Positions 1 through 46,549 of a DNA stretch of 64,000 nt are shown here, in pieces (the stretch's first letter is position 1; the number at the start of each line of letters is the position of its first letter). The notes under the pieces were generated by a model. That model was not told the origin of the DNA and did no database searches. It saw only the letters and a list, made by a program, of their open reading frames with translations. The stretch is from NCBI GenBank assembly GCA_937983075.1, contig CALKAQ010000033.1, positions 4,114 to 68,113 of the forward strand, in the 5' to 3' direction. Both the position numbers and the translations under genes were made by a program. The DNA comes from an uncultured bacterium (GTDB lineage: Bacteria > Bacillota > Limnochordia > DTU080 > JAAYLA01).

Positions 1-796
1 CGGCTCCGATACGAGTGCGGTCGCTTTGGCGGCGGCTCTGAAAGCTGAGGCGTGTGAAATCTATACCGACGTCGACGGCATTTATACCGCCGATCCGAGA
101 GTGGTGCCGAACGCCCGAAAGCTTGCCGACATTTCCTACGGTGAAATGTTGGAGATGGCTAGTTTAGGTGCTCTCGTACTGCAGCCGCGGGCTGTGGAGT
201 TCGCTGCCCAGTTCGGCATACAGGTTCACGTCCGCTCAAGTTTGAACGAAAGCGAAGGGACGATTGTGCGGGAGGAACGACGCATGGAGAAAGATATGAT
301 CGTCGTGGGAGCGGCTCACGACACCAATGTTGCAAAAATTGCCTTGACAGACGTTCCTGATCGACCGGGCATAGCCCATCGCATTTTTTCGCAGCTTGCC
401 GCCGAAGGCGTCAACGTCGACATGATCGTTCAGACCAACCGCAAACAGCAAGTCACCGATCTCGTATTCAGCACCAGTCGTGACGATTTGCCGCTCACCC
501 GCAAAATCATTGAGAAGGTACGAGAAGAACTGAACGCGGGCGAAGCGCTGTACAGCGACGATGTCGCCAAAGTGTCCATCGTCGGCGCGGGCATGGTGAG
601 CAATCCTGGAGTGGCGGCCCGAATGTTTGAAGCTCTAGCTGAAATCGGTGCCAACATCCATGTCATCAGCACTTCGGAAATTAAAGTTTCCTGTCTCATC
701 GACGAGGATAAGGTAGAAGAGGCCATGCGCGCGATTCACGCCAAGTTCGGACTTGATCAAGCCCCCGCAGCGGCGATGGATGCAACACAGTCGTGA
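1..796 (+). CDS. Aspartate kinase, C-terminal part (ACT regulatory domains); 5' end lies outside the window
   Basis: ORF 26..796 in a frame that is open to the window start; translation matches the aspartokinase catalytic end plus tandem ACT domains. Confidence 0.85.
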   Translation, partial: GSDTSAVALAAALKAEACEIYTDVDGIYTADPRVVPNARKLADISYGEMLEMASLGALVLQPRAVEFAAQFGIQVHVRSSLNESEGTIVREERRMEKDMIVVGAAHDTNVAKIALTDVPDRPGIAHRIFSQLAAEGVNVDMIVQTNRKQQVTDLVFSTSRDDLPLTRKIIEKVREELNAGEALYSDDVAKVSIVGAGMVSNPGVAARMFEALAEIGANIHVISTSEIKVSCLIDEDKVEEAMRAIHAKFGLDQAPAAAMDATQS

Positions 797-938: not shown

Positions 939-1016
939 CGGGCTGTAGCGCAGCTTGGTTAGCGCGCCACACTGGGGGTGTGGAGGTCGCGAGTTCAAAT
1001 CTCGCCAGCCCGACCA
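939..1016 (+). tRNA. tRNA-Pro (anticodon GGG)
   Basis: Manual fold: acceptor CGGGCUG/CAGCCCG, D-stem GCGC, anticodon stem CCACA/UGUGG with loop CUGGGGG, T-arm GCGAG-UUCAAAU-CUCGC, 3' ACCA. Confidence 0.85.
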
Positions 1017-1105: not shown

Positions 1106-1801
1106 ATGGCAACTTTCGTGATCTGTCACGGAACGTGGGATGGAGGTTGGTGTTGGCGGGAGGTCCGGCAACAGTTGAGGCGTCTGGGCCATGAAGTGTA
1201 TACACCGACCTTAACAGGGCTCGGAGAACGCTCTCATTTAAACGGCGCTCACATCGACTTCCATACGCACGTCCAAGACATTGTCAACGTCATCACATAC
1301 GAAAACTTAACCCGGGTCATCCTTGTCGGCCACAGTTACGGCGGAGCCGTCATCACCGGTGTGGCTGAGCACATACCCGACCGCATAGAGCATCTTGTCT
1401 ACCTGGACGCGTTGGTGCCGATCGACGGGAAGACAGTGGGTGATCTTTTTGGTGACGAAGTGTTTGCGCAAACCGCTGAGTTTGTAGCGGTGTTTGGTGA
1501 TGGCTGGCGCCTGCCTTATCCCGGTGAGATCGCAGACAGCAGAATTCACGACCATCCATGGCACACGTACACTCAGCCCATCCGGATCGCTCATCCCCGG
1601 GCAGCCGCATTGCCCCGGACTTTCGTCGCCTGCACCAAGCGCGATGCGGAAGCGGTGTATCACCAAGCCATTGAATCTTCCGCCGCTCGTGCACGCTCCT
1701 CCGGGTGGGAATACATCGAATTTGCAGCCGATCACAATCCGCACTTGACCATGCCGGCGGAGACGGCTGCTTTGCTCGCACAGTTTGCAAATGATGCTTA
1801 A
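1106..1801 (+). CDS. Alpha/beta hydrolase (esterase / methylesterase-like)
   Basis: In-frame ATG at 1106 preceded by AGGAGCG; protein begins MATFVICHGTWDGGW with GHSYGG nucleophile-elbow motif. Confidence 0.75.
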   Translation: MATFVICHGTWDGGWCWREVRQQLRRLGHEVYTPTLTGLGERSHLNGAHIDFHTHVQDIVNVITYENLTRVILVGHSYGGAVITGVAEHIPDRIEHLVYLDALVPIDGKTVGDLFGDEVFAQTAEFVAVFGDGWRLPYPGEIADSRIHDHPWHTYTQPIRIAHPRAAALPRTFVACTKRDAEAVYHQAIESSAARARSSGWEYIEFAADHNPHLTMPAETAALLAQFANDA

Positions 1802-1951: not shown

Positions 1952-2182
1952 ATGTCTTACCAGGAAGTTCTGAACAGGGAATTCCTCGAGACTCGGTGGC
2001 TGATTCTGCAATTGGCCGCTGCCTTGGATCGCTTGGACCGAGCTGGGGCACCGAAAGAGGGCGATGAAAGAATCGATCAGTTGCGGAAAGCACTCAACGT
2101 GCTGAATGATCATGAAGCCGAGCGAGCCGAACGGGTACAGCTCATCTTCTCACGCGAGTACGATCCAAATTGGCGAGATTAA
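1952..2182 (+). CDS. Hypothetical small protein (77 aa)
   Basis: ATG preceded by GAGGTGA; no recognisable family; sits directly upstream of the TatD gene. Confidence 0.4.
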
Positions 2183-2195
2183 GGGGGCGAGATGG

Positions 2196-3026
2196 ATGCG
2201 CTACATCGATCCGCATATTCATATGGTCTCCCGAACTACGGATGACTACCGCCGCATGGCGAAAGCGGGATGCGTTGCGATAAGTGAACCAGCCTTTTGG
2301 GCAGGGTTTGACCGCTCGTCCGTAGACGGGTTTCGGGATTACTTCCGACACTTGACCGAGTTTGAGGCCAAGCGCGCCGCAACCTACGGTATACAGCACT
2401 TTACCTGGATCTGCATCAATGCCAAAGAGGCTGAAAATGTCGAACTGGCACGGGAAGTCATCAAAATCATCCCTGAATTTCTCGATAACCCCAGCGTTTT
2501 GGGGATTGGAGAAATCGGGCTCAACAAGAACACTCCCAATGAAGTGACCGTCTTCCGCGAACAAGTGGAGCTTGCCCTGGAATACGACGAGCTCATCTTG
2601 ATCCACACGCCGCACCTCGAAGACAAGTATCAAGGTACGCGTATGATTCTCGACATACTATCGGAATATCCGAAGATCAATCCGGAACGTGTGTGCATCG
2701 ACCACGTCGAGGAACATACCATCAAATTGGCTTTGGATGCCGGGTATTGGGTCGGCATGACGCTCTATCCCGTTTCGAAATGCACACCGGCTCGAGCGGC
2801 CGATATGATTGAACGCTATGGCACGGAGCGAATCATGGTCAACAGTGCGGCCGACTGGGGTCCTTCAGATCCTCTCGCTGTACCCGAGTTCATTCTAGAA
2901 ATGCGCAGGCGGGGGCATAAAGAAGAAGACATTGCACGAGTCGTATACGAAAATCCCATCAAATTCTTCTCGGGCAGCCGCAGGTGGAAACCGTCTCCCG
3001 CTCTCTCAGCAAATTTGGAGGTTTAA
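2196..3026 (+). CDS. TatD-family metal-dependent hydrolase (EboB-like position)
   Basis: Start [10 protein letters not shown] (HxH metal motif) after AAGGGGG RBS; TIM-barrel amidohydrolase fold signatures. Confidence 0.8.
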
Positions 3027-3028
3027 GC

Positions 3029-4240
3029 ATGAAAGGCAAAGTAGGTTTATGGCTTGTAGGTGCATTGGGAGGCGTCGGTACCACAACTGCCGTCGGTCTC
3101 TCTGCAATTCGGCAAGGGATTGCCGAGACTACGGGGCTCGCAACGGAGCTACCCATGTTCAAAGAAGTTGACTTGCCCGCTTGGGAAAATTTCGTCGTCG
3201 GCGGTCACGACGTCCGCAAAGGTGACTTCAACACGGCGGCCAAAGAATTGCAGTCCTTGTCGGGGATTTTCTCTGATTCCCTGCTCCATGCGGTGCAAAG
3301 CGACCTGGAAACGTGGTCCGATAATTTGCGTCCCGGCATCGTCGTCGGGGCCAGCGAAACGGTCCGCAGCATTGCCGATTGGTATTTGGAAAGCGAACCC
3401 AAGTCGGACGCTGAACTTATTGCGGCGATACAACGTGATTTCGAAGACTTTCGTGAACGTCACGGCTGCGAGCAGGTCGTCGTCGTCAATGTGACGTCGT
3501 CGGAACCGACACCGGAGCCTTCCGAGTATTTGGAGTCGCGGGCTGCGCTTGAGGCGGCACTCGAACGCGGTGAATCCGGCATACTGCCTGCGAGCTCGCT
3601 TTACGGCTTGGCCGCGCTGCGTGCCGGATGCCCGTATGTAAACTTCACGCCGTCCGCCGGTCTGACGCCGCCCGCGGTGAAAGAAATCGCCGATTCCTTG
3701 GGCGTTCCTTACGCCGGCCAAGACGGCAAAACCGGTGAGACGCTGCTGAAAACGGTATTGGCGCCGATGTTCTTGTATCGCAATCTCAAAGTTCTCTCGT
3801 GGGTCGGTCACAACATTCTCGGCAATCGGGACGGACAAGTGCTCGACGATCCGCGTAACAAGCAAGGCAAGCTGAAGTCCAAAGACCGGGTGGTCGAAGA
3901 AATTCTCGGCTACCGGCCGCAAACTCACGTTTCGATTGAGTACATCCGCTCCTTGCAAGACTGGAAGACAGCGTGGGATTTCATCCATTTTGAAGGTTTT
4001 CTCGGAACCAAAATGACGCTGCAGTTTACCTGGCACGGATCGGACTCCATCCTGGCAGCTCCGCTCGTTCTCGACTTAGCAAGACTTGCGGCGTGGGAAA
4101 GCGCACAAGGATCCCAAGGCGCCTTGGTGCATTTGGCGGTGTTCTTCAAGAGTCCGCTCGGCGGTGCGCCGCATAACTTATTCGAGCAGTTCGTTATGCT
4201 CGAGGAGCGAATGAAACAGGTTCGGAAAGTAGGGCGATGA
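3029..4240 (+). CDS. myo-Inositol-1-phosphate synthase family sugar-phosphate cyclase (archaeal/bacterial short type)
   Basis: RBS GGAGG 7 nt upstream; MKGKVGLWLVGALGGVGTT N-terminus and NFTPS, GQDGKTGETL, LAPMFLYRN motifs align with archaeal MIPS. Confidence 0.85.
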   Translation: MKGKVGLWLVGALGGVGTTTAVGLSAIRQGIAETTGLATELPMFKEVDLPAWENFVVGGHDVRKGDFNTAAKELQSLSGIFSDSLLHAVQSDLETWSDNLRPGIVVGASETVRSIADWYLESEPKSDAELIAAIQRDFEDFRERHGCEQVVVVNVTSSEPTPEPSEYLESRAALEAALERGESGILPASSLYGLAALRAGCPYVNFTPSAGLTPPAVKEIADSLGVPYAGQDGKTGETLLKTVLAPMFLYRNLKVLSWVGHNILGNRDGQVLDDPRNKQGKLKSKDRVVEEILGYRPQTHVSIEYIRSLQDWKTAWDFIHFEGFLGTKMTLQFTWHGSDSILAAPLVLDLARLAAWESAQGSQGALVHLAVFFKSPLGGAPHNLFEQFVMLEERMKQVRKVGR

Positions 4241-5112
4241 TGAAACTGGGATTCAGTTCCAATGCATTTCGCAAATTTCCCTTGAGTGAAGCCATTGAGA
4301 CCATATCGCAAATTGGCTACAATGGTATTGAAATCATGTGCGATGCACCTCATGCCTACCCTCCTGATGTAACTGACGCGTATATTGCAGAAACACGCTC
4401 GTTGTTGCAACAGAAGGGGCTCACTGTAGCCAATCTCAATGCATTTATGATGACTGCGGCGCGAATGCGCCGCGGCGACGACGGAATTCCCGAATTTCCA
4501 CGATCCCCGGACGACTTTTGGCTCCCTTCGTACATTCAATCGGAACCGACGGGCCGTCGCACCCGTATCGAGCACACAATCAATTGCCTTCGGTTAGCCA
4601 AAGAGTTCGGTGCCGGCGGCATTTCAATCGAACCGGGCGGTCCTTTGGAGGATTTCTCCGAAGAAGAAGGCTTAAACCGCTTTGCCGCCGCTTTGGAGGA
4701 AATCATACCGGTTGCTGAAGAGCTCGGCGTCGAATTGCGCATTGAACCGGAACCCGGACTTGTGATCGAACGCTCCGATCAATACTTGAAGTTCATGGAG
4801 CGCATTGATTCGCCGATGGTCGGCCTGAATCTCGATATCGGTCACATTTACTGCGTGGGGGAAGACCCCGCCGATGCAATCCGTCGTCTGAGCGGCCACA
4901 TCCGGTACATTCAAATTGAGGACATCGCAGCAACACGGGTGCACCAACACCTCGTTCCAGGCGACGGTGCCATCGATTTCGATTCCGTGTTTGAGGCCTT
5001 GCGGGATGTGAACTACCAGGGGTGGGTAACCGTTGAGCTTTACCCGCTTCTCGACGATCCGCATACCGCGGCACAGCGCGCGTACGATTATCTCAAACCC
5101 TATTTCGATTAA
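4237..5112 (+). CDS. Xylose isomerase-like TIM-barrel protein (sugar phosphate isomerase/epimerase family), copy 1
   Basis: Start overlaps stop of upstream gene (ATGA); N-terminus MKLGFSSNAFRKFPLSEAIE typical of the AP-endonuclease-2/xylose-isomerase TIM-barrel family. Confidence 0.8.
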   Translation: MMKLGFSSNAFRKFPLSEAIETISQIGYNGIEIMCDAPHAYPPDVTDAYIAETRSLLQQKGLTVANLNAFMMTAARMRRGDDGIPEFPRSPDDFWLPSYIQSEPTGRRTRIEHTINCLRLAKEFGAGGISIEPGGPLEDFSEEEGLNRFAAALEEIIPVAEELGVELRIEPEPGLVIERSDQYLKFMERIDSPMVGLNLDIGHIYCVGEDPADAIRRLSGHIRYIQIEDIAATRVHQHLVPGDGAIDFDSVFEALRDVNYQGWVTVELYPLLDDPHTAAQRAYDYLKPYFD

Positions 5113-5179
5113 ATGAATCTCCGCCGCTGCGGCGGATGGCGTGGCAGATGGGAAACAAGCGGGTTGGGGGGATGCCGCT

Positions 5180-6043
5180 ATGCGGCTGGGATACAACACC
5201 AATGGTTTTGCACATCACAGCCTTGAAACTGCATTGGAGATCATAGCCGAATTGGGCTACAGCAGTGTAGCGATTACCCTCGACCACCACGTCCTCAATC
5301 CCTTCGAGCCGGATGTTTTGGGCAAAGCGCGTGTGATTCGCCAGCGTTTGAATTCCCTCGGATTGTCCAGTGTGATCGAAACCGGCGCGCGCTTTCTGCT
5401 CGACCCATGGAACAAACATGAGCCTACGTTGATGAGTGCAGATCCGGAAGGTCGGGCGCTGCGCATCGATTTTTTGCGCCGGTCGATCGAGTTGGCTGCC
5501 GAGCTGGAATCCGACGCTGTTTCCTTATGGTCGGGAAATCTCAAGGAGCCAATTTCCGAAGAAGCCGCGTGGGATCGGCTGCAGGCCGGATGCGAGATGG
5601 TGCTGCAGCATGCGGAACGTTTGGGTATTCCTCTGGCGTTCGAGCCGGAACCCGGTATGTGGGTCGACACGTTGGAGCAATACGGCGAATTGCGGCGGCG
5701 CATGCCGCATCCGCTTCTCGGCCTGACGATCGACATCGGACACATTCACTGTCAGCAAGAAGGTCCGATTGACGTGTTGATTGAGGAGTGGGCTCCTTAT
5801 TTGCGAAATGTGCACATTGAAGACATGCGCCGGGGCGTACACGAGCACTTGATGTTTGGCGAAGGGGAAATTGAATTCTCTTCGGTCATGGGCGCTCTGG
5901 AGCGGATTCGTTATCAAGGCGGAGTCCACGTTGAATTATCGCGCCACAGCCACATGGCACCGACCGTGGCTAAGGAGGCACGCCAGTTTTTGTTGCGAGC
6001 GCTGGCAGAATACAAGGAGGGTGCACCATGGCCAAGCATGTAG
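5180..6043 (+). CDS. Xylose isomerase-like TIM-barrel protein, paralogous copy 2
   Basis: MRLGYNTNGFAHHSLETALE parallels copy 1 N-terminus; GGGGGGA RBS; long ORF alternative start at 5141. Confidence 0.75.
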   Translation: MRLGYNTNGFAHHSLETALEIIAELGYSSVAITLDHHVLNPFEPDVLGKARVIRQRLNSLGLSSVIETGARFLLDPWNKHEPTLMSADPEGRALRIDFLRRSIELAAELESDAVSLWSGNLKEPISEEAAWDRLQAGCEMVLQHAERLGIPLAFEPEPGMWVDTLEQYGELRRRMPHPLLGLTIDIGHIHCQQEGPIDVLIEEWAPYLRNVHIEDMRRGVHEHLMFGEGEIEFSSVMGALERIRYQGGVHVELSRHSHMAPTVAKEARQFLLRALAEYKEGAPWPSM

Positions 6044-7344
6044 TCTTTCTTTCCATACCGCATTTGCGTCCGCAAGACGTCGAGAAGATGGCATCCTTGA
6101 CCAAGCTGCGCGAGCAGGGGGCCGCAGCGGCGCTCATTCCACAGTTTCCGGCGTTGACGTGGCCGGTGCAGGCGACGATGATGACGGGAGTCGCCCCGAG
6201 TGAACACGGCATCACGGCAAACGGGCTCTACCGCCGTGACACGGACGAAGTCGACATGTGGACGTTTTGGAACAAGGAAATTCAAGCACCACAGGTGTGG
6301 GACAAACTCAGAGAGGTTAGTCCGCAAACAACGACGGGCAGCTGGTTCCCACTTCTCACCAAAGGTGCCAACGTCCATTACGCCATGACGCCGAAACCGA
6401 AGCACAATCCGGATGGAACGGAAACCATGTGGTGCTATTCACGCCCGGAAGATCTGTACGAACAGCTTCTTCCGGAGCATGGTCATTTTCCCTTGCACCA
6501 TTTTTGGGGTCCGTTGTCTTCCATAAAAGGAAGCGAATGGATTGTCAACTCCGCGCTCTCGCTTTTTGAACGGGAAGCGCCTAACTTCCTATATATTTAC
6601 ATTCCGCAGCTGGACTACGCGGCACAAAAGACAGGACCGGACTCTCCGGAAGCCATGGAGCGCGTGCGCGAACTCGACGAACTCTTAGAGAAGTTTTTTG
6701 CTCGCTTGCATGAATTGGCGGACGATCTCGAAATCATCGTCGCAGGAGAATACGTCATCACGCCCGTTTCCAATCCGGTCTATCCGAACCGACTCCTGCG
6801 CGAAGCCGGTTTTCTTGCGCTCGGTGAAGAAGAAAACGGCCGTGAGCTTCTGCTGACGGGCAAAAGCAAGGCGTGGGCGCTGTGCGATCACCAAATTGCA
6901 CACGTTTACGTCAAAGATGCTGATGTCGAACAGGTTGCCGCGGTGTTCCGAGGGGTGCGGGGAATTGAGCACGTTCTCGTCGGTGATGCGAAGAAAGAAT
7001 GGGGAATCGATCATCCCAACAGCGGCGAAATTGTTTTGGTCTCCGATGCGAACAGCTGGTTTGCGTATCCGTGGTGGCTCGACGATGCCAAAGCACCTTC
7101 GTTTGCCGCCACGGTAGATATTCATCGCAAGCCTGGCTACGATCCGGTCGAATTGTTTTTGGATCCGGCCACGCGGAAAATTCCTTTGGATGCGAGTCTC
7201 GTTAAGGGCTCCCATGGGCGTGTCACCGATGACCCCAGTCTCCACACGGTGCTCATTTCCTCGAGACCAAGGCAACTGCCTGAGCAGTTGCACCAACGTG
7301 AAATACCCGGAATTATATTTGATGCTTTAGACATATCCATCTAG
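6028..7344 (+). CDS. Alkaline phosphatase superfamily type I phosphodiesterase / nucleotide pyrophosphatase family protein (EboF-like)
   Basis: AAGGAGGGTG RBS; QFPALTWPVQATMMTGVAPSEHGI resembles the NPP-family catalytic-Thr/metal site motif; overlaps upstream gene by 16 nt. Confidence 0.8.
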   Translation: MAKHVVFLSIPHLRPQDVEKMASLTKLREQGAAAALIPQFPALTWPVQATMMTGVAPSEHGITANGLYRRDTDEVDMWTFWNKEIQAPQVWDKLREVSPQTTTGSWFPLLTKGANVHYAMTPKPKHNPDGTETMWCYSRPEDLYEQLLPEHGHFPLHHFWGPLSSIKGSEWIVNSALSLFEREAPNFLYIYIPQLDYAAQKTGPDSPEAMERVRELDELLEKFFARLHELADDLEIIVAGEYVITPVSNPVYPNRLLREAGFLALGEEENGRELLLTGKSKAWALCDHQIAHVYVKDADVEQVAAVFRGVRGIEHVLVGDAKKEWGIDHPNSGEIVLVSDANSWFAYPWWLDDAKAPSFAATVDIHRKPGYDPVELFLDPATRKIPLDASLVKGSHGRVTDDPSLHTVLISSRPRQLPEQLHQREIPGIIFDALDISI

Positions 7345-7417
7345 AGAATTTGCTTGGATTGGACGCGCTCCCCGGGGAGAACTTCCCCTGGGGAGTGCAG
7401 AAAGGGTGGCCATTCCC

Positions 7418-8341
7418 ATGCCCGCTCCGCAAAAGAATGCGCTTCATGCGCAACCGAAGTTGCAGCGGAATTTTGTGCAAGCTTTTTTGCAACTCATCCG
7501 ACTGCCAAATCTATTCACCGCGGCTGCCGATCCGCTGGCTGGAGCTTTAGCCGCGGCCGGTCTGCTCGGATTGCCGCTGCATTGGCCAGCGGCGTTGGCT
7601 GCTGCTGCGGTGGGAGTGTTTCTTTATGCCGGCGGCGTCGTGCTCAACGACTATGTCGACTTGAAAGAGGATTCACAAGACAGGCCGGATCGCCCGCTGC
7701 CAAGCGGGGAGGTTTCTCCGGCGGAAGCATTGGCCGTTTCGGTCTGTCTTTTCGGCATTGGTGCCGGCTTGGCGCTCATTGCTTTACCCAGCGGAGCGAA
7801 ATGGACGGTCTTGGCTCTAATTCTTAGTATTCTTTTATATAATATTTGGGCCAAGCACGTTCCGGTCGCAGGCCCCATTGTCATGGGCGCATGCAGGGCG
7901 CTCAATATTTACGTCGGTTTGTGGACGGTCACCGGTGGATTCGAGGCGTTGTGGTGGGTAGGTCTTCTGAGTCTCGGCCACTTCGCCGCCTTCACGTATC
8001 TCGGCGAAGCGGAAGCAAGCACTCCAAGTCCATCGCAGATAGCTGCAGTCTTTTTGGCGGCAGCGGCGGTAAGCGGTGTTTTGGTTTGGCAGCTCGGTAC
8101 GGCGTGGATGACGTTGTTGGCCGTCGGTGTTTATTTCTTGATCAACGTTGAATCGGCTATCCGACTGATTCGGGAACGAGTCGGCGCCAACGTGCATCGC
8201 GGCGTCAAACGCGGCATTCTTTCTCACGTCTTGATTCATGTGGCAGTGGTCGGAGCGTTGGCCGGTATCGGCTATGGTCTCATTCCGTTGTTTTTGTTGG
8301 GAGCAAGCACCGTCGCAGCACGGACTTTAGTCATGACCTAA
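7418..8341 (+). CDS. UbiA-family prenyltransferase (EboC-like), polytopic membrane protein
   Basis: NDYVDLKEDSQDRPDRPLPSG (NDxxDxxxD Asp-rich motif), multiple TM segments; ATG at 7418 after AAAGGGTGG (ORF opens at GTG 7406). Confidence 0.85.
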   Translation: MPAPQKNALHAQPKLQRNFVQAFLQLIRLPNLFTAAADPLAGALAAAGLLGLPLHWPAALAAAAVGVFLYAGGVVLNDYVDLKEDSQDRPDRPLPSGEVSPAEALAVSVCLFGIGAGLALIALPSGAKWTVLALILSILLYNIWAKHVPVAGPIVMGACRALNIYVGLWTVTGGFEALWWVGLLSLGHFAAFTYLGEAEASTPSPSQIAAVFLAAAAVSGVLVWQLGTAWMTLLAVGVYFLINVESAIRLIRERVGANVHRGVKRGILSHVLIHVAVVGALAGIGYGLIPLFLLGASTVAARTLVMT

Positions 8342-8487: not shown

Positions 8488-10011
8488 ATGAGTGAGATCA
8501 GTGTAGCCATGAAGGGCATCTGTAAGGACTTTGGTCCCGTTCGGGTCCTCTTCGATGTCGACTTTTCTGTGAAGAAGGGCGAAGTGCATGCTCTTCTTGG
8601 CGAAAATGGTGCGGGTAAGTCGACACTGATGAAGATCCTCGGTGGTTACCTGCAGCCGACTGAAGGCACAATCGAGATTTTCGGCGAAGAAGTCAAACTA
8701 ACCGACAGCGGACGGGCCGAAGATTTGGGTATCGTGCTCATCCACCAAGAGTTTAATCTCGCAGAAGATTTGACGGTCGAACAGAACATTTTTCTCGGCC
8801 GCGAAATTCGAAAAGGTCTTCTCGTGAATGAGCGCGAAATGCAGGAAAGATGCCGACAGGCTTTGGAGGAGCTTGAGTCAGCTCATATCGATCCGCGCAG
8901 CCGTGTGAAGGATCTCTCCGTATCGGAAAAGCAGATGGTCGAAATCACCAAGGCCATGTCGCGCAATACAAAGATTCTCATCCTCGATGAGCCGACTGCC
9001 GTTCTTACCGGCAGTGAGACAGCCGTTCTCTTTAAGCTCATTCGGCGCCTGAAGAGCCAGGGAGTAAGCATCATCTACATTTCGCACAAACTCGACGAAG
9101 TCAAGGAGATTTCCGATCGGATAACGGTCCTGCGCGACGGCAGATTGATTACCGTGCGTGACACTGCGGATGTCACGCCGGACGAGATGGCGAACTTAAT
9201 GGTAGGCCGCGAACTCGTTGATATGTACCCTCCCAAAAACCAAAATATCAACGATGAAGTCGTATTCGCGGTCGAAGGCGTTTCAGTGCCGAAGTTCTGT
9301 GAAAATTGCTCTTTTGAGCTCCGCCGCGGGGAAGTTCTTGGGTTTGCCGGTCTCGTTGGCTCGGGACGAACCGAGCTGATGGAAGGCATCCTCGGCCTGA
9401 GGCCGCGCACCTCGGGTAAGATTTACCGCAACGGTGAGGAAGTTAGAATTCGCACCGTCGCTGATGGTCTTAAATTGGGCATTGCGTATTTGAGCGAAGA
9501 CCGAAAGGGCAAAGGGCTTCACCTTGAGTTTACACTGACGCCAAATGTAACTTTGCTTGCGCTGAAGAAGTTTTGTAAGGGACTTTTCCTTGACAAAAAG
9601 CTCGAAGAAGAGGCGTTAAAGCAGGCGATTGAGGACTTCGAAATCAAGGTTCCCCATTTGAATACCAAGGTGAACACACTCAGCGGCGGTAATCAGCAGA
9701 AAGTCGCGCTGGGGAAGATCATGCAGGTTGATCCGGAAATCGTCATTTTGGATGAGCCGACCCGCGGTATCGACGTCGGCACCAAGCAGCAAATTTACTA
9801 TTTTGTACGTGAACTCACCGAGCAGGGAAGGTCGGTCATCTTGATTTCCTCGGAAATGCAAGAAATTATCGGGCTTTCCGATCGTGTTGCGGTGATGTTC
9901 GACGGCAGAATCACCGGTATCCTTACGGGCGATCAAATCAATGAAGAAACCATTGTCCGTTACGCCACGGGCTTGGAAGGGGTCAAGCAACATGCAGCAA
10001 AAACCGGCTGA
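8488..10011 (+). CDS. Sugar ABC transporter ATP-binding protein with duplicated ATPase domains (RbsA/MglA type)
   Basis: Two Walker A (GENGAGKST / second domain) and LSGGNQQK signature motifs; 509 aa. Confidence 0.85.
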   Translation: MSEISVAMKGICKDFGPVRVLFDVDFSVKKGEVHALLGENGAGKSTLMKILGGYLQPTEGTIEIFGEEVKLTDSGRAEDLGIVLIHQEFNLAEDLTVEQNIFLGREIRKGLLVNEREMQERCRQALEELESAHIDPRSRVKDLSVSEKQMVEITKAMSRNTKILILDEPTAVLTGSETAVLFKLIRRLKSQGVSIIYISHKLDEVKEISDRITVLRDGRLITVRDTADVTPDEMANLMVGRELVDMYPPKNQNINDEVVFAVEGVSVPKFCENCSFELRRGEVLGFAGLVGSGRTELMEGILGLRPRTSGKIYRNGEEVRIRTVADGLKLGIAYLSEDRKGKGLHLEFTLTPNVTLLALKKFCKGLFLDKKLEEEALKQAIEDFEIKVPHLNTKVNTLSGGNQQKVALGKIMQVDPEIVILDEPTRGIDVGTKQQIYYFVRELTEQGRSVILISSEMQEIIGLSDRVAVMFDGRITGILTGDQINEETIVRYATGLEGVKQHAAKTG

Positions 10012-11047
10012 GACTGTAGTACAACCAAAGCCGAGAATGCGCATTAATCTCGGGGCTTTCGGGCCGCTTATAGCGTTTATTGTGCTGTTTATTGTCGCTG
10101 CGATTATCGGCAGAGAGCAAAACTTTTTGTCGGCGCAGAATATCACCAACCTGTTGATACGTATGGCCTTGCTCGGTCCGGTTGCCATCGGTATGACGTT
10201 CGTCATCATCGGTGGGGGCCTTGACCTGTCGGTCGGTTCGATGATGGCCCTCATCGGCGGTCTGATGATCTTCTTGTCAGAATACCTGATCGATGTCATG
10301 GGCTATGGATTTTTCACCGCACTGTTGGTCATGATCGGTGCCGTCGTCATAGGGTTAATATTCGGTCTCATCAATGGGCTGCTGGTGACGAAAGCAAAGA
10401 TTGAACCATTTATCGTGACGCTCGGTACCATGGCCATCTTCCGTTCGGTGTTTGCATACTTGGCGGGAGGCGGCTCGCTCCGTTTTGATACGACGTTCAT
10501 GCGTGGAGCACGAGATGGATCCACCTGGGCGTACAGTACGATGTACAGCGGTAAAGTACTGCAATTCGGCGACTTTCCCGGCATCCCCTTGCCGTTCGTT
10601 GTGTTGATCGTTTTGGCGATCCTCGCAGGGATTTTGCTGAACAAAACGCGGTTTGGACGCTATGTTCTCGCCATCGGGTCCAATGAAAACGTCGCTCGCT
10701 ATTCAGCCATTAACGTCGACCGGATTAAACTGTACACCTACTGCCTCATCGGTGCATGCGTAGGTATTGCGACGATTCTCCAAATGGGACGTCTCGGTTC
10801 AGTACAGTATCAAACCGGTATGATGTTGGAACTGCAAGCCATTGCCGCTGTCGTTATTGGTGGCACCGCACTGAAAGGCGGTTCGGGCCGTATTTCAGGT
10901 ACTTTGCTCGGTGTAGCGATTTTCGTTCTCATCGAGATGGTGCTCAACATGCTGCCGTGGGTTGACAACAACCTCGTCGACACATTCCGTGGTGCCATCA
11001 TCATCGTGGCCGTTTGGCTGCAAATTCTCGGCAATCGAAAGCGGTAA
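9992..11047 (+). CDS. ABC transporter permease (RbsC/branched-chain type)
   Basis: Start MQQKPAE overlaps ATPase stop; about 10 TM segments. Confidence 0.8.
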   Translation: MQQKPAETVVQPKPRMRINLGAFGPLIAFIVLFIVAAIIGREQNFLSAQNITNLLIRMALLGPVAIGMTFVIIGGGLDLSVGSMMALIGGLMIFLSEYLIDVMGYGFFTALLVMIGAVVIGLIFGLINGLLVTKAKIEPFIVTLGTMAIFRSVFAYLAGGGSLRFDTTFMRGARDGSTWAYSTMYSGKVLQFGDFPGIPLPFVVLIVLAILAGILLNKTRFGRYVLAIGSNENVARYSAINVDRIKLYTYCLIGACVGIATILQMGRLGSVQYQTGMMLELQAIAAVVIGGTALKGGSGRISGTLLGVAIFVLIEMVLNMLPWVDNNLVDTFRGAIIIVAVWLQILGNRKR

Positions 11048-11067
11048 TCCTTTAACCTGCTTTTCGT

Positions 11068-11115
11068 GGGTTCCCCGACATCTTCTGAAGATGTTTGGGA
11101 ACCCGTTTTTCCTTT
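11068..11115 (+). terminator. Intrinsic terminator after the permease gene
   Basis: GGGUUCCCCGACAUCUUC / GAAGAUGUUUGGGAACCC long hairpin followed by GUUUUUCCUUUU. Confidence 0.55.
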
Positions 11116-11421
11116 TAACAAGGAATTCATGGTTAAAGCGATGAAAGACGGCATGGCGGCAAAAATTTCTTCCTGCAATCAGCTCGCAGCGACAAGAAAA
11201 AGAAGAATTTGTTGCTGGAGGAATGCAGGAATTTGTCTTTAATGTAGCGAAATGGAGAAGCAAGCAATGCACGTCTAGTACACCAGGAATTGAAGGGGGG
11301 TGGGGGATTTCACCGTGTGACCCGGGCTAAACGCCGAGCGCGGTGAAGATCTTCAACTAACGTTTACGTATTGAGAGGAATTTTTCCCAACGCAAATGGC
11401 CAAAGGAGGAATTCAGAGAAC

Positions 11422-12381
11422 ATGAAGAAGTTGAGAACGCTTTTGATCACTGCGATCGTTGCAGTTCTTGCTCTCGGCGCAGTTGCCAGCGCCCAACAAG
11501 AGCAAATTACCATTGGTGTCGCCATCCCGGCAGCGACTCACGGTTGGACGGGTGGCGTCAACTACTGGACCAACGAAACTGTGGCTTCGCTTGAAGCTCG
11601 CTATCCGAACCTGAAGTTCGTCGTCTTGGCTGCCAACAGCGCTGCTCAGCAGGCTGACCAGCTCCAGGACCTCTACGTATTGCACAACATCGATGCTCTC
11701 GTCATCCTGCCGTTCGAATCCGACCCGCTCACCGGCCCGGTTCGTGAACTCAAGGAATTGGGCGTCTGGGTAACGGTTGTCGACCGTGCTTTGGGTGAAG
11801 AAGGCATCGAAGACCTCTATGTCGCCGGTGACAACTACTCCTTCGGTCGTGTCGCTTGCGAATACATCGCTGAGCGTCTCGGCGGCCAAGGTGACATCAT
11901 CATTATGCGCGGTATGCCGATCGTCATCGATCAGCAGCGCTTCGACGCCTGCATGGAGGTTCTCTCCAAGACGAACATTCGAGTTCTTGACACCGCTTAC
12001 GCCAACTTCAACCGCGATGATGCTTTCGAGCGTATGGAAGAGTTCTTGATCCGCTACCCGAAGATCGATGCCATCTACGGCATGGATGACGACCAGGTAG
12101 TCGGTATCCTCGAGGCGATCGAACTCGCCGGCCGCACCGATATTCAGTTCATCGTCGGCGGTGCTGGTATGAAGGAAATGATCGAGCGTGTCATGAACAA
12201 CGATTCGATGATCCCGGTCGACGTCACCTATCCGCCGTCTCAGATTGCGACCGCTCTCGAAATCACCGCTCTGAACTTCGTGCGGAAGGGTGTTCCGGTC
12301 AACGGTAAGTTCATCATCGAGTCTGTTCTGGTCACGCCGGAAAACGCTGCTGAGCACTACTTCCCCGATTCGCCGTTCTAA
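11422..12381 (+). CDS. Sugar ABC transporter periplasmic substrate-binding protein (periplasmic binding protein-like I fold), lipoprotein/secreted
   Basis: AAAGGAGGA RBS, MKKLRTLLITAIVAVLALGAVASA signal peptide; PBP type I sequence features. Confidence 0.8.
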   Translation: MKKLRTLLITAIVAVLALGAVASAQQEQITIGVAIPAATHGWTGGVNYWTNETVASLEARYPNLKFVVLAANSAAQQADQLQDLYVLHNIDALVILPFESDPLTGPVRELKELGVWVTVVDRALGEEGIEDLYVAGDNYSFGRVACEYIAERLGGQGDIIIMRGMPIVIDQQRFDACMEVLSKTNIRVLDTAYANFNRDDAFERMEEFLIRYPKIDAIYGMDDDQVVGILEAIELAGRTDIQFIVGGAGMKEMIERVMNNDSMIPVDVTYPPSQIATALEITALNFVRKGVPVNGKFIIESVLVTPENAAEHYFPDSPF

Positions 12382-16863: not shown

Positions 16864-17697
16864 GTGACACATTTGATTCGCAATCGCTTGGGGCGTCACA
16901 GTTTCATCCTGACGCTGGCGATGCTGCTCGTCGCCTGCGCTGCTTTTGCGGTTTCCGCACAGCTGTCTGAAGCCGAGCTGTGGGCTCACCGCGAAGGCAT
17001 TTCGCCCGAAGGATGGCTCGCCAGTTCATCCGTCAACTCCGAGTCCGCTCAGCTCGGCATCGACGGAAATGCGAATACGTCTTGGAATGCACTTGCTAAA
17101 GCCGGAGACTATTATGCGGTCGATCTCGGTGACGTCTACGCCGTAAACCGCCTCGAATGGCACACCGGAAAAACGGCGCTTGCCTATCCGCAAGATTTCC
17201 GCGTCGAAGTTTCGCTCGACGGTGACAATTGGACGACGGTTGCATCCGCCGACGATGCCGAACAATTCCTAGCGGAAGATCATCTTCTGCAGGTCATCTG
17301 GCCTGCAGTTGAGGCGCGGTACTTGCGCATTGTTCAGCAAAGCGACCAAGACGAGGCATTGAACCTGCAGCGGCTGATCGTTTGGGAAGAAGGCATGGAG
17401 GTCGGGGCACTCATCTATGAGTGGGTTTATATTCCCGCGAACCTCCTTGTAGCCGAAGGTACAAAGGTGAACTGGCTGCAGGCTGATTTCACGCCGCACA
17501 CGGTCACCGAGGGAATCCCGGCCACACCGCCGCATGAACGTATTTTCGATTCGATGTATGACGAAGAAGGCAATTGGGTTGGCTATATGTACCTGGGCGA
17601 CACATGGGCCTATGTTTTTAGGGAAGCGGGCTTTTTTGAGTACATCTGTTTGCCGCACCCGTTCATGGAAGGAACGGTGAAAGTGGTCCGGTTCTAA
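16864..17697 (+). CDS. Secreted fusion protein: N-terminal F5/8 type C (discoidin) domain + C-terminal amicyanin-like type-1 copper (cupredoxin) domain
   Basis: Signal peptide; GIDGNANTSWNA...RLEWHTG discoidin-like block; C-terminal FTPHTVT ... YICLPHPFMEGTVKVV matches the amicyanin His / C-x-P-H-P-F-M copper-ligand pattern. Start could be TTG at 16873. Confidence 0.65.
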   Translation: MTHLIRNRLGRHSFILTLAMLLVACAAFAVSAQLSEAELWAHREGISPEGWLASSSVNSESAQLGIDGNANTSWNALAKAGDYYAVDLGDVYAVNRLEWHTGKTALAYPQDFRVEVSLDGDNWTTVASADDAEQFLAEDHLLQVIWPAVEARYLRIVQQSDQDEALNLQRLIVWEEGMEVGALIYEWVYIPANLLVAEGTKVNWLQADFTPHTVTEGIPATPPHERIFDSMYDEEGNWVGYMYLGDTWAYVFREAGFFEYICLPHPFMEGTVKVVRF

Positions 17698-18297: not shown

Positions 18298-19407
18298 TTA
18301 ACTTTGCAGCGAGAAATACCCGACCAGCCGATGGTTGATTTGTTCCTCAGTATATTCCGGAAACAGGTCGTGTTCGCGTACGAGATCGTACAAGCGTTCC
18401 ATCGGTTCACGTTTGTCTTCGCTCCGAAGCTGTTTGTCTTCCAAAGCTTCCCATGTTTCCAAAATGAACTGCCTTCCGCCGTCCTTTGCGATGCCCTGCT
18501 GCGCGAAGAAGTGCTCCAAGTGAGCGACGTCTTCAAGAAAGCCGTTGCCGAATCTTTCTTTGACCTTGCCGGACAAAAGAGCAATTTCGGCTTCGTACAT
18601 CGGCCGCTGGCTTGCTTTCTCTTTGCCGATCCACGGCGTTTCAAGAATGATGGGCTTATCTTTGAAAACTTCGTGGTTGACGATGTAGTGGAGCGCTCGA
18701 AAACCGATGTGCCCGGATCCGACGGGGGAGTGCCGGTCCTTCCTTGAACCGCGGGGATTCTTGCTGTCGTTGACGTGCAAAACGGCCAGCCGATCGAGTC
18801 CGATGATGCGGTCGAATTCTTCGATCACCCCGTCGAAGTCGTTCACGATGTCGTAACCGGCGTCGTGGACGTGACACGTATCGAAGCACACACTTAAGCG
18901 ATCGTTGTGGGTCGTTTTTTCAATGATGGAGGCCAGCTCCTCAAAAGTGCGGCCGATTTCCGTACCCTTGCCGGCCATGGTCTCCAATGCAATGTGAACG
19001 TCGTGGTCAACGGAAAGGACTTCATTTAAGCCCTCGACGATGCGATTGATCCCGTAGTCGAGATCTTTGTCCGTAAAAGCACCGGGATGGAGCACGATGT
19101 TTTTGACACCGATAAAGGCGGTGCGTTCGATTTCGCTCTGCAAAAATTCCACGGCAAGCGTAAAGACGTTCTTTTTGTATGAGGCAAGGTTGATGATATA
19201 CGGCGCATGGACTACGATGTCATCGATGCCGTGCTTTTCCATGAGAGCAAGTCCTTCGGGAACGTATTGCTCTTCCATTGGCTTGCGCTGGGTGTTTTGC
19301 GGCGCTCCTGTATAGATCATGAACGTGGTTGCACCATAGCTCAGCGCCTCTTCCACCGCGTTGAGCAAACCCTTCTTCGAAAAAGACACGTGGGAACCAA
19401 TTTTCAA
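18298..19407 (-). CDS. nfo: Endonuclease IV (AP endonuclease family 2) with ~85-aa C-terminal extension
   Basis: KIGSHVSF ... HAPYIINL ... [10 protein letters not shown] ... [13 protein letters not shown] ... [10 protein letters not shown] motifs; probable TTG start after GGGAG (track ORF opens at 19485). Confidence 0.8.
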
Positions 19408-19481
19408 AAGCAATGCACTCCCTGTTTCTTTGCTGTAGAAGCGTGGAGACCACAGTCGGCTGCGGCCTCCACGCGCGGTGA

Positions 19482-21350
19482 TCAAACGAAAAGGTCCACG
19501 AGGGAAAAGCCATCGGCTCCTACTTTCACCAGTCCTTTATCGGACATGTGAAGTTCTCGCAGCACGACAAGAGCCAACAGCGAAATCGTCATGAAAGCGT
19601 AGTTCAAATTGCAGCCGGCTTCGACGAGGGCACGGCTGATGTTGCGTGACTGTTCGGCCACACGTTCGTATGGTTCCGGAGACATCAGACCCGCGATGGG
19701 GAGGGGAAGCGTAACACATTGTTGTCCGTCGACTCCCTCCGTGATCACGCAAATCCCGCCGCCTATCTTGGCCAGCTCGTTTCCGGCACGCGCCATCAAC
19801 GCATCGGAATTGCCGATAATCATGAGATTGTGGCTGTCGTGTGCGACCGTCGTCGCAATCGCCGCCGGCACGTTGAAGCCCAATCCCGTCACAATTCCGT
19901 GCGCCATTTTTCCGGATGCGCGATGGCGCTCGATGACCGCGATTTTACATGCATCGACATCTCCCACAGCGTCAACTTGCAGTTGCCCTTGGCTCACCGG
20001 AAGTGTAAGGATGTCTTCGCGGGTTTCCACGGAATTCTCGATCACGCGGATGGCACGTACTTGAGCCGTGCCGCTTTCAAGCGGCGCCTTGATGATGAAA
20101 TCATCGGGCGTCAATTCTTTATGCAGACGAACGGTGTCCATCACTTCCGGCGGATAGTCAAATTGCGGAAGCTCTACGGTCAAACGCCCGTTTTCGGCGA
20201 CGACTTGTCCGGCCGCGATGGTCATGACCACGTTGACGTCGGCAAGGTTGCCGTCAAGCAGGATGATGTCTGCATAAGTGCCGGGCGTCACGCTGCCCAC
20301 ATCACGTGCCACGCCAAAGCGTTCCGCCGGGTTCAAGGTGGCCATTTGGAATGCAGTGATGGGTCGGACCCCTTGCTGGATGGCATGGCGGACGACGAAA
20401 TTCATGTGGCCTTCGTCAATGAGTGATTCCGAGCTGCGGTCGTCGGTGACGAGGATCAGCCGCCGCGGATCGAGGCCGTATTCGGTGTGGGCCCGGATGG
20501 TGGCCGCCACGTCGTGCCACGCTGAACCGCGGCGCATCATGCCGTACATGCCCAGGCGCACCCGCTCGATGATGTCTTCGGCCGTGGTGCTTTCATGGTC
20601 ACCCGTAATGCCTGCTGCCGCATACGCGACGAGCCGATCGTCGGGGGGCCAGGTAAAGTGGCCGTCCGCCACACGTCCCGCCCTGAGAGCAGCTTGAATT
20701 TCGCCGATCATCTTCGCATCGCCGTAAACGACCCCGGGGAAATTCATCACTTCGCCGAGTGCGATGACGTCCGGTCCCCAGCTCATGGCTTCGGCAACTT
20801 CATCGGGACCGATGACGGCACCGGGAGTCTCCAAGTCGAGAGAGCTGGCAGGGACGCACGATGCAACTTGCAAATACGCAGCCAACGGCGTCGTGCGGGC
20901 TTCGTCGAGCATCAGGCGAAGCCCTTGCAGCCCCAGAACGTTCGCAATCTCATGCGCGTCGAAGAAACCGCCGGTTGTGCCGAGCGGCAGGACGGCCCGA
21001 GCAAATTGCGTAACGGTAATCTGGCTGCTTTCGATATGGCAATGGCCGTCCAAAAATCCCGGAGCTATGTAGCGGCCGTCCGCGTCAATGACCGTGGTAT
21101 TGTCGTCGATAGTGAACGGCTCGTTCCGCCCGACATAGGCGATGCGGGAACCTTGAACTGCGACGTTGATGCCGTCCAGAATCTCACCCGAACACACATT
21201 GACGAGTCGGCCGTTGCGAATGACCAACGTCGCCGGGAGATCCCCCCGGGCTGTCGCCACGAGACGTGGAACCATGTCCGCAAGCGGCTCGCGTTTGAAA
21301 GGGGTGGTATTGTTGTTGGATTGAGCGGTCAAGAGGAATTCCCCCTCCAT
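19482..21350 (-). CDS. ade: Adenine deaminase
   Basis: [11 protein letters not shown] ... [12 protein letters not shown] metal-site motifs and full-length similarity to AdeC; start ambiguous (21350 or 21275; track ORF to 21437). Confidence 0.8.
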
Positions 21351-35099: not shown

Positions 35100-35503
35100 C
35101 GTCGAAGACCTCCAGCTTTGCAATGCGAGTACAAAATCGGGAAGTTTGTATCATCCATAACCATGCGAAGAGGGGCGAAGTCGTTGCAGTGTTGTCCAAA
35201 CCTTTGCGGGTATGCAGACGAAAACGGCCTTTATTCTAGCACAGGGCTAGGAGGCAGAGCAACGATCATGACAATCATTTCGGCAGCACGCTGGGACGAC
35301 AGGCATCCCATCGATACAAGAGGATTGGCGTTCCTGGAGTTTTTGGTCTATAATGACGTGGGTTACAATTCCTCCAAACCACCGTCATCCGCAGCAGTAC
35401 GGATTGGCCGACAACCGGATGAAACACCATCACAATAATGTCGCCTCGAGCCGGAAACCCGTTCGGTTCGCCGCCATGGTGTGCCAGTCAGGAGAGTTTC
35501 GCT

Positions 35504-46473: not shown

Positions 46474-46549
46474 TGGCAGGGGAGACAGGACTCGAACCTG
46501 CAACCCCCGGTTTTGGAGACCGGTGCTCTGCCAATTGAGCTACTCCCCT
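46474..46549 (-). tRNA. tRNA-Trp (anticodon CCA)
   Basis: Reverse complement folds as AGGGGAG acceptor, GCUC D-stem, anticodon arm CCGGU-CUCCAAA-ACCGG, T-arm GCAGG-UUCGAGU-CCUGU, 3' GCCA. Confidence 0.85.

Follow-up and report, generated by a model that had tools for sequence, protein, structure and literature searches.

Introduction

The ebo cluster is among the most widespread bacterial gene clusters with unsolved enzymology, and in vitro activities have been obtained only for EboD, which is a DEI synthase (PMC12904256), and for EboC, a UbiA-family prenyltransferase that, as Ubi-297/EboC, farnesylates 8-hydroxyquinaldic acid (8-HQA) (PMC9235831). The canonical eboABCDEF clusters of Bacteroidota, Cyanobacteria, Leptospira, and eustigmatophyte plastids, as well as the EDB cluster of P. 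fluorescens, combine a cyclitol synthase, modifying enzymes, and a UbiA prenyltransferase. Here we describe a locus that follows the same logic in a 64-kb stretch of DNA from an uncultured bacterium (contig CALKAQ010000033.1; the whole stretch is called the window). It encodes homologues of EboB, EboC, and EboF (EboB 41 to 47% and EboC 25 to 34% identical to the canonical proteins), but EboA, EboD, and EboE are all missing from the window. We propose that positions 1952 to 8341 are probably a seven-gene operon for a variant of the ebo pathway that would make a prenylated cyclitol-derived metabolite, with a farnesyl- or drimane-quinoline of the saccharoquinoline/thallusin type as the likeliest candidate.

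Thallusin is an algal growth signal, and its link to the ebo genes is only months old. According to a preprint of May 2026, thallusin production tracks the ebo genes in five phyla; deletion of eboB, eboC, eboE, or eboF in Stieleria abolishes thallusin in each case; the quinoline ring of thallusin takes its nitrogen and four carbons from L-aspartate; and EboC enzymes from three phyla farnesylate 6,7,8-trihydroxyquinaldate (bioRxiv 10.64898/2026.05.21.724671). The survey in that preprint lists eleven phyla, with at least 10 clusters each, and Bacillota is neither among them nor named in the text. In a review of February 2026, ebo is still presented as a Gram-negative and eustigmatophyte cluster. 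An earlier interpretation of the window, made from the letters alone and called here the sequence-only reading, had stated that the chemical product of ebo is still unknown; the tie to thallusin and saccharoquinoline makes that statement outdated (bioRxiv 10.64898/2026.05.21.724671).

Departures from the canonical cluster have been described before. EboG, a short and poorly conserved protein, takes the place of EboA in groups that include Acidobacteria, Chloroflexi, and Deinococcales; the EboB tree separates the eboA and eboG types with full support; and eboD is missing from two of three Planctomycetes (Yurchenko et al. 2016, PMC5133447). Like the window, the EboG-type operon has a G-family protein encoded directly upstream of EboB and no EboA (PMC5133447), and it forms the sister clade in our EboB and EboF trees (identities of 58 to 64% for EboB, 37 to 40% for EboF, and 29 to 38% for EboC). 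Unlike the window, it encodes a DHQS-like EboD and an EboE of 380 to 410 amino acids (aa), it has neither a myo-inositol-phosphate synthase (MIPS) nor the two TIM-barrel proteins that we call Ta and Tb, and its UbiA protein passes the cutoff of the EboC model (315 bits, compared to 176 bits in the window). Actinomycetota are without eboD and use ino1 (MIPS) together with ino2/ino3 (bioRxiv 10.64898/2026.05.21.724671). In the ebo/ino clusters of Saccharomonospora sp. CNQ-490 and of a Streptomyces locus (L008), as in the window, MIPS replaces EboD (42% identity) and a Tb-like barrel is present (45%). Members of this type have been linked experimentally to saccharoquinoline and thallusin. The Actinomycetota type further differs from the window in having EboE (432 bits with model NF035939), EboA (PF28008) rather than the G protein, a third barrel (T3), a UbiA protein of the SCO3242 family, another gene order, and an EboB that is only 43% identical. 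The BE-40644 cluster of Actinoplanes sp. A40644 also joins a cyclitol synthase to a UbiA-family farnesyltransferase, giving an isoprenoid-cyclitol hybrid with a drimane-type moiety; by its description it is set apart by an EEVS that uses sedoheptulose-7-phosphate and by a UbiA protein outside the EboC group.

Gene content and layout of the operon

The seven genes lie co-directionally and closely spaced on the plus strand within 6.4 kb, in the order eboG-like, eboB, MIPS, Ta, Tb, eboF, and eboC-like. The predicted products are an EboG-like small helical protein of 76 aa (1952 to 2182); EboB, a TatD-family metal-dependent hydrolase of 276 aa (2196 to 3026; PF01026); an archaeal-type MIPS of 403 aa (3029 to 4240; PF07994 and PF01658, NAD_binding_5 and Inos-1-P_synth); the xylose-isomerase-like TIM barrels Ta, of 291 aa (4237 to 5112; PF01261, AP_endonuc_2, 156 bits), and Tb, of 300 aa (5141 to 6043; PF01261, 131 bits); EboF, an alkaline-phosphatase-superfamily type I phosphodiesterase/phosphatase of 438 aa (6028 to 7344; PF01663, Phosphodiest, 171 bits); and an EboC-like UbiA-family membrane prenyltransferase of 311 aa (7406 to 8341; PF01040). 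Gaps of 13, 2, 28, and 61 nucleotides (nt) separate the 76-aa open reading frame (ORF) from the TatD gene, TatD from MIPS, Ta from Tb, and eboF from the eboC-like gene, respectively; MIPS and Ta overlap by 4 nt and Tb and eboF by 16 nt.

The sequence-only reading had seen six packed co-directional genes, and all six are present with the Pfam domains it named, but it missed the 76-aa ORF, which makes the unit one of seven. The start coordinate that it gave, 1952, is not that of the TatD gene. That position is the ATG of the 76-aa ORF, which has its own ribosome-binding region (GAGAGAGAGGTGA) and a reading frame different from that of the TatD gene; the latter starts at the ATG at 2196, inside a mechanical ORF of 2106 to 3026. 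For MIPS the mechanical ORF opens at 2984, and the gene start was taken as 3029. Tb starts with the GTG at 5141 (an alternative start at 5180 would give 287 aa), and for the UbiA protein an alternative start at 7418 would give 307 aa. A consensus scan for promoters and terminators between 700 and 8700 gave signal counts no higher than expected from shuffled sequence, and no hairpin was found in either intergenic region flanking the operon, including the one after the UbiA gene; the operon boundaries are therefore drawn from spacing and synteny only.

EboB, EboF, and the prenyltransferase

Neighbor-joining trees with 200 bootstraps were calculated for EboB, EboF, and EboC. By their positions in these trees, the predicted TatD, phosphodiesterase, and UbiA proteins cluster with the EboB, EboF, and EboC proteins of true ebo loci (bootstraps of 76 to 100). 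The assignment of the locus to the ebo family, as made in the sequence-only reading, agrees with these clades and with EboC being the top NCBIfam match of the UbiA protein. The strongest similarity is that of EboB, which is 71 to 74% identical to EboB of Planctomycetota loci (type 3 of the architectures described below), 58 to 64% identical to EboB of EboG-type loci (58% to the TatD gene of the canonical-type locus L005), and 41 to 47% identical to that of EboA-type loci. In the tree, a trio of Firmicute sequences is sister to seven Planctomycetota type-3 loci (100), then to type 2 (100), and beyond type 2 to Streptomyces (100), all of these being opposed to the remaining EboA-type sequences. 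The TatD N terminus, MRYIDPHIH, corresponds to the HxH start of the family; H7 and H9 of this motif are retained, as are the remaining His, Glu, and Asp columns conserved in the family. EboF was assigned from Pfam, identity, and tree, without a curated EboF model. It is 45 to 51% identical to Planctomycetota type-3 EboF and 34 to 40% identical to other EboF proteins, and it joins type 3 (86), then Streptomyces (96), then the type 2/EboG-type sequences (98).

The top NCBIfam match of the UbiA protein is EboC (NF035940) with 176 bits, under the cutoff of 250, followed by the SCO3242 family with 123 bits (cutoff, 260) and by DGGGP-synthase models with 78 to 82 bits. When NF035940 was applied to other UbiA proteins, those of Planctomycetota type 3 also failed (194 to 222 bits), and those of type 2 (315 bits) and Chloroflexi (279 bits) passed; the UbiA protein of Streptomyces L008 reached 383 bits with the SCO3242 model. 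Outside its own lineage, the closest relatives of the window protein are 44% and then at most 39% identical, some of them being named EboC. In the EboC tree it falls in a clade of 16 members with the type-3 loci (76), which is joined by the EboG-type/type 2 sequences (86). The grouping with Ebo clades, for which the sequence-only reading had proposed to look, appears in the tree, and the EboC model score stays below its cutoff. The motif NDxxDxxxD is present as NDYVDLKED at residues 81 to 89, together with several hydrophobic segments.

The nearest outgroup to the Firmicute UbiA proteins (44% identity, bootstrap 100) lies on a 2.9-kb contig, L007 (Logan ERR13909482). Its phosphodiesterase is 56% identical to that of the window and precedes the UbiA gene in the same F-then-C order. 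L007, known as this 2.9-kb contig only, may represent an intermediate lineage. Cupredoxin genes (plastocyanin/azurin-like) directly flank EboC in L007 (1850 to 2281, minus strand) and in L005 (9434 to 9919, minus strand). The window has a protein with F5/8-type-C and cupredoxin domains at 16864 to 17697 (plus strand), 8.5 kb downstream of the cluster, and its C-terminal motif C-x-PHPFM-x-G-x-VKVV matches the cupredoxin of L007. A cupredoxin as a conserved oxidative partner of EboC was considered and rejected, as the other loci do not generally show this pattern.

The small EboG-like protein

The 76-aa ORF matches no Pfam or NCBIfam family, EboA included, and its conservation extends to every relative. 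With a 103-aa ORF located between eboD and eboB in L005, it shares 37% identity. A hidden Markov model built from 12 non-Firmicute members of the family recovered the 76-aa ORF as its sole match among the 944 ORF segments of the window (E value of 1e-22; 1.2 for the next best segment), and a phmmer search against 1.84 billion representatives returned 487 relatives, all of 67 to 151 aa. The AlphaFold2 model of the protein consists of three helices (pLDDT 92.9), and a fold search with this model against the PDB gave no match with an E value below 1. The ORF belongs to a family of short proteins encoded directly upstream of eboB in ebo loci that have no eboA. We infer that this family is the published EboG, an identification made by position, taxa, and the EboB tree and not by published EboG sequences.

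The putative cyclitol-forming front end

The genes between eboB and eboF are those that set the operon apart from the canonical cluster. The MIPS protein matches the MIPS of A. fulgidus (1u1i) over its full length (E value of 1e-96, residues 22 to 409) and only distantly resembles the five-membered-cyclitol synthase 6k96 (E value of 2e-12). Read off the alignment with 1u1i, it keeps the counterparts of D225, K274, K278, K306, D332, and K367, which we take to be the catalytic residues of the A. fulgidus enzyme. Judged by this similarity, it is most likely a true synthase of inositol-3-phosphate from glucose-6-phosphate. It is 46 to 57% identical to Planctomycetota MIPS proteins whose genes adjoin Ta and UbiA and 42% identical to the MIPS of the Streptomyces cluster. 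It is unrelated to the DHQS-like EboD and appears to occupy the cyclase role of the latter.

Ta is 44 to 49% identical to the product of the TIM-barrel gene that adjoins UbiA in Planctomycetota. Tb is 49 to 55% identical to Planctomycetota Tb, 45% identical to T1, a TIM-barrel protein whose gene lies between those for UbiA and EboA in the Streptomyces cluster, and 33% identical to Ta. HHalign relates Ta to Tb with an E value of 3e-47, Ta to EboE only partially (159 columns, E value of 1e-10), and Tb to EboE with a probability of 23%. Ta and Tb are paralogues of each other, with matches to EboE at the level of the superfamily only. All NCBIfam matches of Ta are below cutoff (fructoselysine 3-epimerase, 86 bits; IolE, 77; IolO, 69; EboE, 32), and Tb scores 43 bits with the IolE model, for which the cutoff is 290. 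With the EboE model NF035939 (cutoff, 250), Ta reaches the same 32 bits and Tb gives no match, compared to 432 to 443 bits for control EboE proteins. Both barrels retain the acidic and histidine residues that their family conserves and are predicted to be metal-dependent cyclitol dehydratases, isomerases, or epimerases.

These comparisons change the picture drawn by the sequence-only reading, which had given the order as B-D-E-E'-F-C with a duplicated EboE and had taken the set of domains for the defining content of ebo clusters. MIPS is not an EboD homologue, the TIM barrels are not EboE, and MIPS with Ta and Tb would form an alternative front end. No DHQS-like EboD was found in the cluster or the 64-kb window, and tblastn gave no match to EboE, EboD, or EboA elsewhere in the window. 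The absence of eboA, which that reading had noted, was confirmed in the window by both profile and tblastn searches. A 395-aa AP_endonuc_2 protein of EboE-like length is encoded at 18298 to 19485 on the minus strand, and besides it and the two barrels the window has no further long member of this family. It was considered as a candidate EboE but proved to be endonuclease IV (Nfo; NF002196, 429 bits) and was rejected; relative to the model, it is extended by about 26 aa at the N terminus and about 90 aa at the C terminus.

The weak matches of Ta to IolE and IolO, those of the UbiA protein to DGGGP synthases, and a CUT2 sugar ABC transporter that follows the cluster directly with no detectable terminator could also point to genes of separate known pathways, such as inositol or sugar uptake and catabolism beside an unrelated prenyltransferase, or the synthesis of inositol-containing or ether lipids. 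The sequence-only reading had itself raised inositol catabolism plus menaquinone prenylation as a possibility. We consider such an origin of the gene set hardly credible, as the scores with iol models are far under their cutoffs of 290 to 300, MIPS is a biosynthetic and not a catabolic enzyme, and the TatD, G-family, phosphodiesterase, and UbiA genes have their specific relatives in ebo loci. The cluster encodes none of the iol operon equivalogs IolG, IolD, IolB, and IolC, no dehydrogenase, and no CDP-alcohol phosphatidyltransferase. In addition, the transporter is missing from a divergent Firmicute lineage (L001) in which the seven genes stay together, and its identity to the transporter found close to the Streptomyces cluster is only 29 to 37%.

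Architecture of related loci

Our preferred reading, a variant of the ebo pathway, is in line with the distribution of the front-end genes. Reference proteins were compared by tblastn to 98 loci, and 88 non-redundant EboC loci were used for co-occurrence. EboD and EboE are found together in 47 of these, and MIPS and/or Ta/Tb without EboD or EboE in 25. EboD never occurs with MIPS or Ta/Tb, and EboE occurs with MIPS and a Tb-like barrel only in Streptomyces. This near-exclusivity suggests that two alternative front-end modules feed a common back end consisting of EboB with EboA or EboG, EboF, and EboC.

Type 1, with the order A-B-C-D-E-F, is found in Bacteroidota, Leptospira, and cyanobacteria. 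Type 2, with the order C-D-G-B-E-F, is found in Acidobacteriota, Armatimonadota, and Vicinamibacterales (L005, L011, L022, L041, L084, and L090); in L005 the genes are UbiA, DHQS, the 103-aa ORF, TatD, EboE (401 aa), and phosphodiesterase. Type 3 is that of Planctomycetota (L006, L010, L021, L023, L030, L058, L067, L072, and L081), with Tundrisphaera spp., Isosphaeraceae, Phycisphaerae, and Thermogutta metagenome-assembled genomes (MAGs) as hosts; it consists of MIPS-Ta-C-Tb-F and a nearby G-B pair on the opposite strand, and neither EboD nor EboE was found within 10 kb. The Streptomyces locus has the order MIPS, UbiA (SCO3242 family), T1, EboA, TatD, EboE, phosphodiesterase, and T3, the last being related to neither Ta nor Tb. 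A type-3 C-Tb-F fragment was also seen in L079 (JABMRB010000538.1), which comes from a bin labelled as a CPR bacterium (Candidatus Nealsonbacteria). This contig is probably mis-binned, as its proteins resemble those of Planctomycetota (53% for Tb and 51% for EboF).

By its predicted products, the window carries exactly the type-3 gene set, joined in one operon. The G, B, MIPS, Ta, Tb, F, and C families are all shared with Planctomycetota, whose proteins are the closest relatives of those of the window, and the EboB, EboF, and EboC trees agree on this. The arrangement is different. In Planctomycetota the set is split, with MIPS-Ta-C-Tb-F on one strand, C lying between Ta and Tb, and the G-B pair on the opposite one at a distance of up to about 5 kb. 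In the Firmicute operon all seven genes are co-directional as G-B-MIPS-Ta-Tb-F-C and are preceded by a gene for an alpha/beta-hydrolase. The variant is an EboG-type back end combined with a MIPS/two-TIM-barrel front end without EboD and EboE, and not a new kind of system. As far as we found, the MIPS, Ta, and Tb set without EboE has no description as a type in the literature.

Conservation and host lineage

In public assemblies, a TatD protein identical to that of the window is indexed in 63 blocks, and the contigs examined that carry it show the hydrolase, the 76-aa ORF, TatD, MIPS, Ta, Tb, phosphodiesterase, and UbiA genes in the same order. The eight-gene arrangement is also kept in the L002-L004 lineage, with protein identities of 81 to 97%, and in the L001 lineage, in which the cluster proteins are 56 to 84% identical and the downstream flank is different (an aminotransferase gene, followed further on by lspA-rluD-pyrR-pyrB-pyrC). 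Recurrence of the eight genes in independent assemblies and in the divergent L001 lineage is far beyond chance. The ratio of nonsynonymous to synonymous substitutions (window compared to L002) is between 0.02 and 0.14 for all eight genes, with 0.14 for the 76-aa ORF. In at least two Firmicute lineages, the operon is conserved, and its genes evolve under purifying selection. The window proteins also retain most columns with a conservation of 95% or higher in relatives outside the Firmicutes, namely, 74 of 75 in TatD, all 72 in MIPS, 35 of 36 in Tb, 34 of 38 in Ta, 70 of 80 in the phosphodiesterase, and 29 of 32 in UbiA.

A contig of the same species (L091; identical TatD, other proteins about 99% identical) extends the upstream side with the order der, plsY, gpsA, spoIVA, hom, thrC, thrB, aspartate kinase, tRNA, and hydrolase. 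Because spoIVA is present, 7.7 kb upstream of the cluster, the host is an endospore former, in agreement with the sporulating Firmicute context that the sequence-only reading had deduced. The comparison with Bacillales in that reading did not hold. The nearest named relatives of SpoIVA are from unclassified "Firmicutes bacterium" MAGs (70 to 72% identity) and Limnochordia MAGs (64 to 67%), and no Bacillales sequence is within the top 120 SpoIVA matches. This similarity places the host in an uncultured Bacillota lineage near Limnochordia and not in Bacillales.

In GC content and in GC at third codon positions, the cluster genes match the remainder of the window and give no hint of having been acquired recently. 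Recent horizontal transfer was rejected on this ground and on that of a tRNA-Pro gene upstream without an adjacent integrase gene. Most likely, the gene set became common to the Firmicute lineage and Planctomycetota through an ancient horizontal transfer. When 185,579 GTDB species representatives were scanned with a UbiA profile, 522 EboC-like relatives were returned, among which there was no close relative (nearest, 35 to 47% identity) and no Firmicute within the best 80 of the 522. The window sequence itself satisfies both search patterns that were used, so its lineage is absent from that collection or masked in it, and the scan cannot show that Firmicutes in general are without ebo genes.

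Proposed pathway and its product

Based on homology and on the conserved catalytic residues, MIPS would cyclize glucose-6-phosphate to myo-inositol-3-phosphate. Ta and Tb, being IolE/IolI/epimerase-like, could then convert the inositol intermediate into a deoxy-inosose-type ketocyclitol, with EboF plausibly removing the phosphate; this step is formally a dehydration of inositol. EboB, its small partner EboG, and EboF would process the ketocyclitol, and, following the model proposed for thallusin in the literature, an L-aspartate-derived unit would be used to form a hydroxylated quinoline-2-carboxylate. The membrane-bound UbiA protein would finally attach, and possibly cyclize, a farnesyl group, an activity seen in vitro for EboC homologues of other phyla only.

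Several points weigh against this proposal. An inosose can be formed from inositol only by oxidation, and no dehydrogenase gene is present in the cluster. To our knowledge, an aspartate-condensing enzyme has been identified in no ebo system. The UbiA protein stays below the EboC cutoff and is 33 to 47% identical to any UbiA protein outside its lineage, and its substrate specificity may differ from that of EboC. There is no EboE orthologue in the cluster or the 64-kb window, and eboE is counted as a core gene that is required for thallusin (bioRxiv 10.64898/2026.05.21.724671). The link between thallusin and ebo comes from that preprint, and the producers tested in it include no Firmicute and none with the front end of the window.

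Some of these points bear on a related explanation, in which the back end is the same and MIPS, Ta, and Tb supply a different cyclitol, so that a distinct prenylated cyclitol or quinoline would be made, also in Planctomycetota. The missing EboE would fit this explanation, as would the UbiA proteins of the Firmicute and type-3 loci, which form a group of their own with all members below the EboC and SCO3242 cutoffs, the separate clade formed by EboF of the same loci, and the near-exclusivity of the EboD-EboE and MIPS-Ta/Tb modules. Yurchenko et al. also suggested that the EboA and EboG variants might differ in their end products (PMC5133447). However, a MIPS front end does not keep Actinomycetota from making thallusin and saccharoquinoline (bioRxiv 10.64898/2026.05.21.724671), their UbiA proteins are more divergent from EboC than that of the window and yet have the same activity in vitro, and EboB is strongly conserved between the types (58 to 74%). 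We think that a distinct product is rather unlikely.

The operon might also make a prenyl-cyclitol carrier lipid that stays in the membrane and takes a different metabolite across it, with no diffusible product at all. All ebo mutants of Nostoc accumulate the scytonemin monomer in the cytoplasm (PMC6282210), EboE carries the NCBIfam name "metabolite traffic protein," and UbiA is an integral membrane enzyme. The preprint calls the Nostoc phenotype indirect and detects thallusin in cyanobacteria that bear ebo genes (bioRxiv 10.64898/2026.05.21.724671), and no cargo pathway adjoins the cluster in the window, which makes a carrier lipid very unlikely in our opinion.

The locus is a natural experiment in which EboB, EboG, EboF, and EboC are kept while EboD and EboE are both swapped, and this helps to assign enzymes to cyclitol formation or to quinoline formation. 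It is tempting to speculate that MIPS, Ta, and Tb are a self-sufficient alternative to EboD and EboE, being either a new inositol-phosphate route to the same ketocyclitol or the start of a separate, uncharacterized family of prenylated cyclitols or quinolines, although we can put this forward only tentatively. If it is true, EboE belongs to the cyclitol-forming front end and not to a universal core, the metabolite family is common to Planctomycetota and uncultured spore-forming Firmicutes, and the Firmicute version is the most compact natural operon with which the pathway could be reconstituted. A single co-directional operon of 6.4 kb is convenient for heterologous reconstitution. The locus also widens the host range of the pathway to endospore-forming Firmicutes, a phylum missing from the published surveys. 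As cultured Planctomycetota (Tundrisphaera) carry the same gene set, thallusin production can be tested there. Complete genomes that contain the set are those of Tundrisphaera sp. TA3 (NZ_CP195100.1) and T. lichenicola P12 (NZ_CP195106.1).

Flanking genes and other features of the window

The alpha/beta-hydrolase gene (1106 to 1801, plus strand; 231 aa, Pfam Abhydrolase_6/_1) immediately precedes the 76-aa ORF in each of the two Firmicute lineages (81% and 56% identity) and was seen in none of the non-Firmicute ebo loci examined. It is a possible accessory gene, and its membership in the unit is uncertain. The mechanical ORF, 887 to 1801, spans a tRNA-Pro(GGG) gene (939 to 1016, plus strand), and roughly its first 73 codons are spurious; the start at 1106 agrees with the gene calls in L091 and L094. 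Several metagenome contigs of the host lineage begin just past this tRNA gene, which may reflect assembly breaks at this site.

The tRNA gene lies between the hydrolase gene and the 3' part of an aspartate kinase gene (26 to 796, plus strand). With hom, thrC, and thrB (4016 to 8601 in L091, including aspartate kinase), the latter belongs to a group of genes situated directly upstream of the cluster, and this position may be coincidental. It is a speculation that aspartate semialdehyde serves as the co-substrate in a Friedlander-type condensation, which would fit the labelling pattern of thallusin.

On the other side, the ribose-type CUT2 ABC transporter (ATPase, permease, and binding protein; 8488 to 12381, plus strand) begins 146 nt after the UbiA gene, with no recognizable terminator in between. 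It is found in the L002 and L091 lineages. As it is missing downstream of the seven genes in L001, and its similarity to the Streptomyces transporter is at the family level only, it was rejected as a member of the operon and is placed outside the unit.

Further away, a tRNA gene (46477 to 46549, minus strand) adjoins a gene for a phage-type tyrosine integrase (46781 to 47875, plus strand). The region from 46477 to 47875 may be the edge of an integrated element, unrelated to the cluster. A 650-aa protein encoded at 35438 to 37390 (plus strand) matches DUF4914 from end to end (1020 bits), and its gene adjoins genes for a UvrD/PcrA-type helicase and an MFS transporter.

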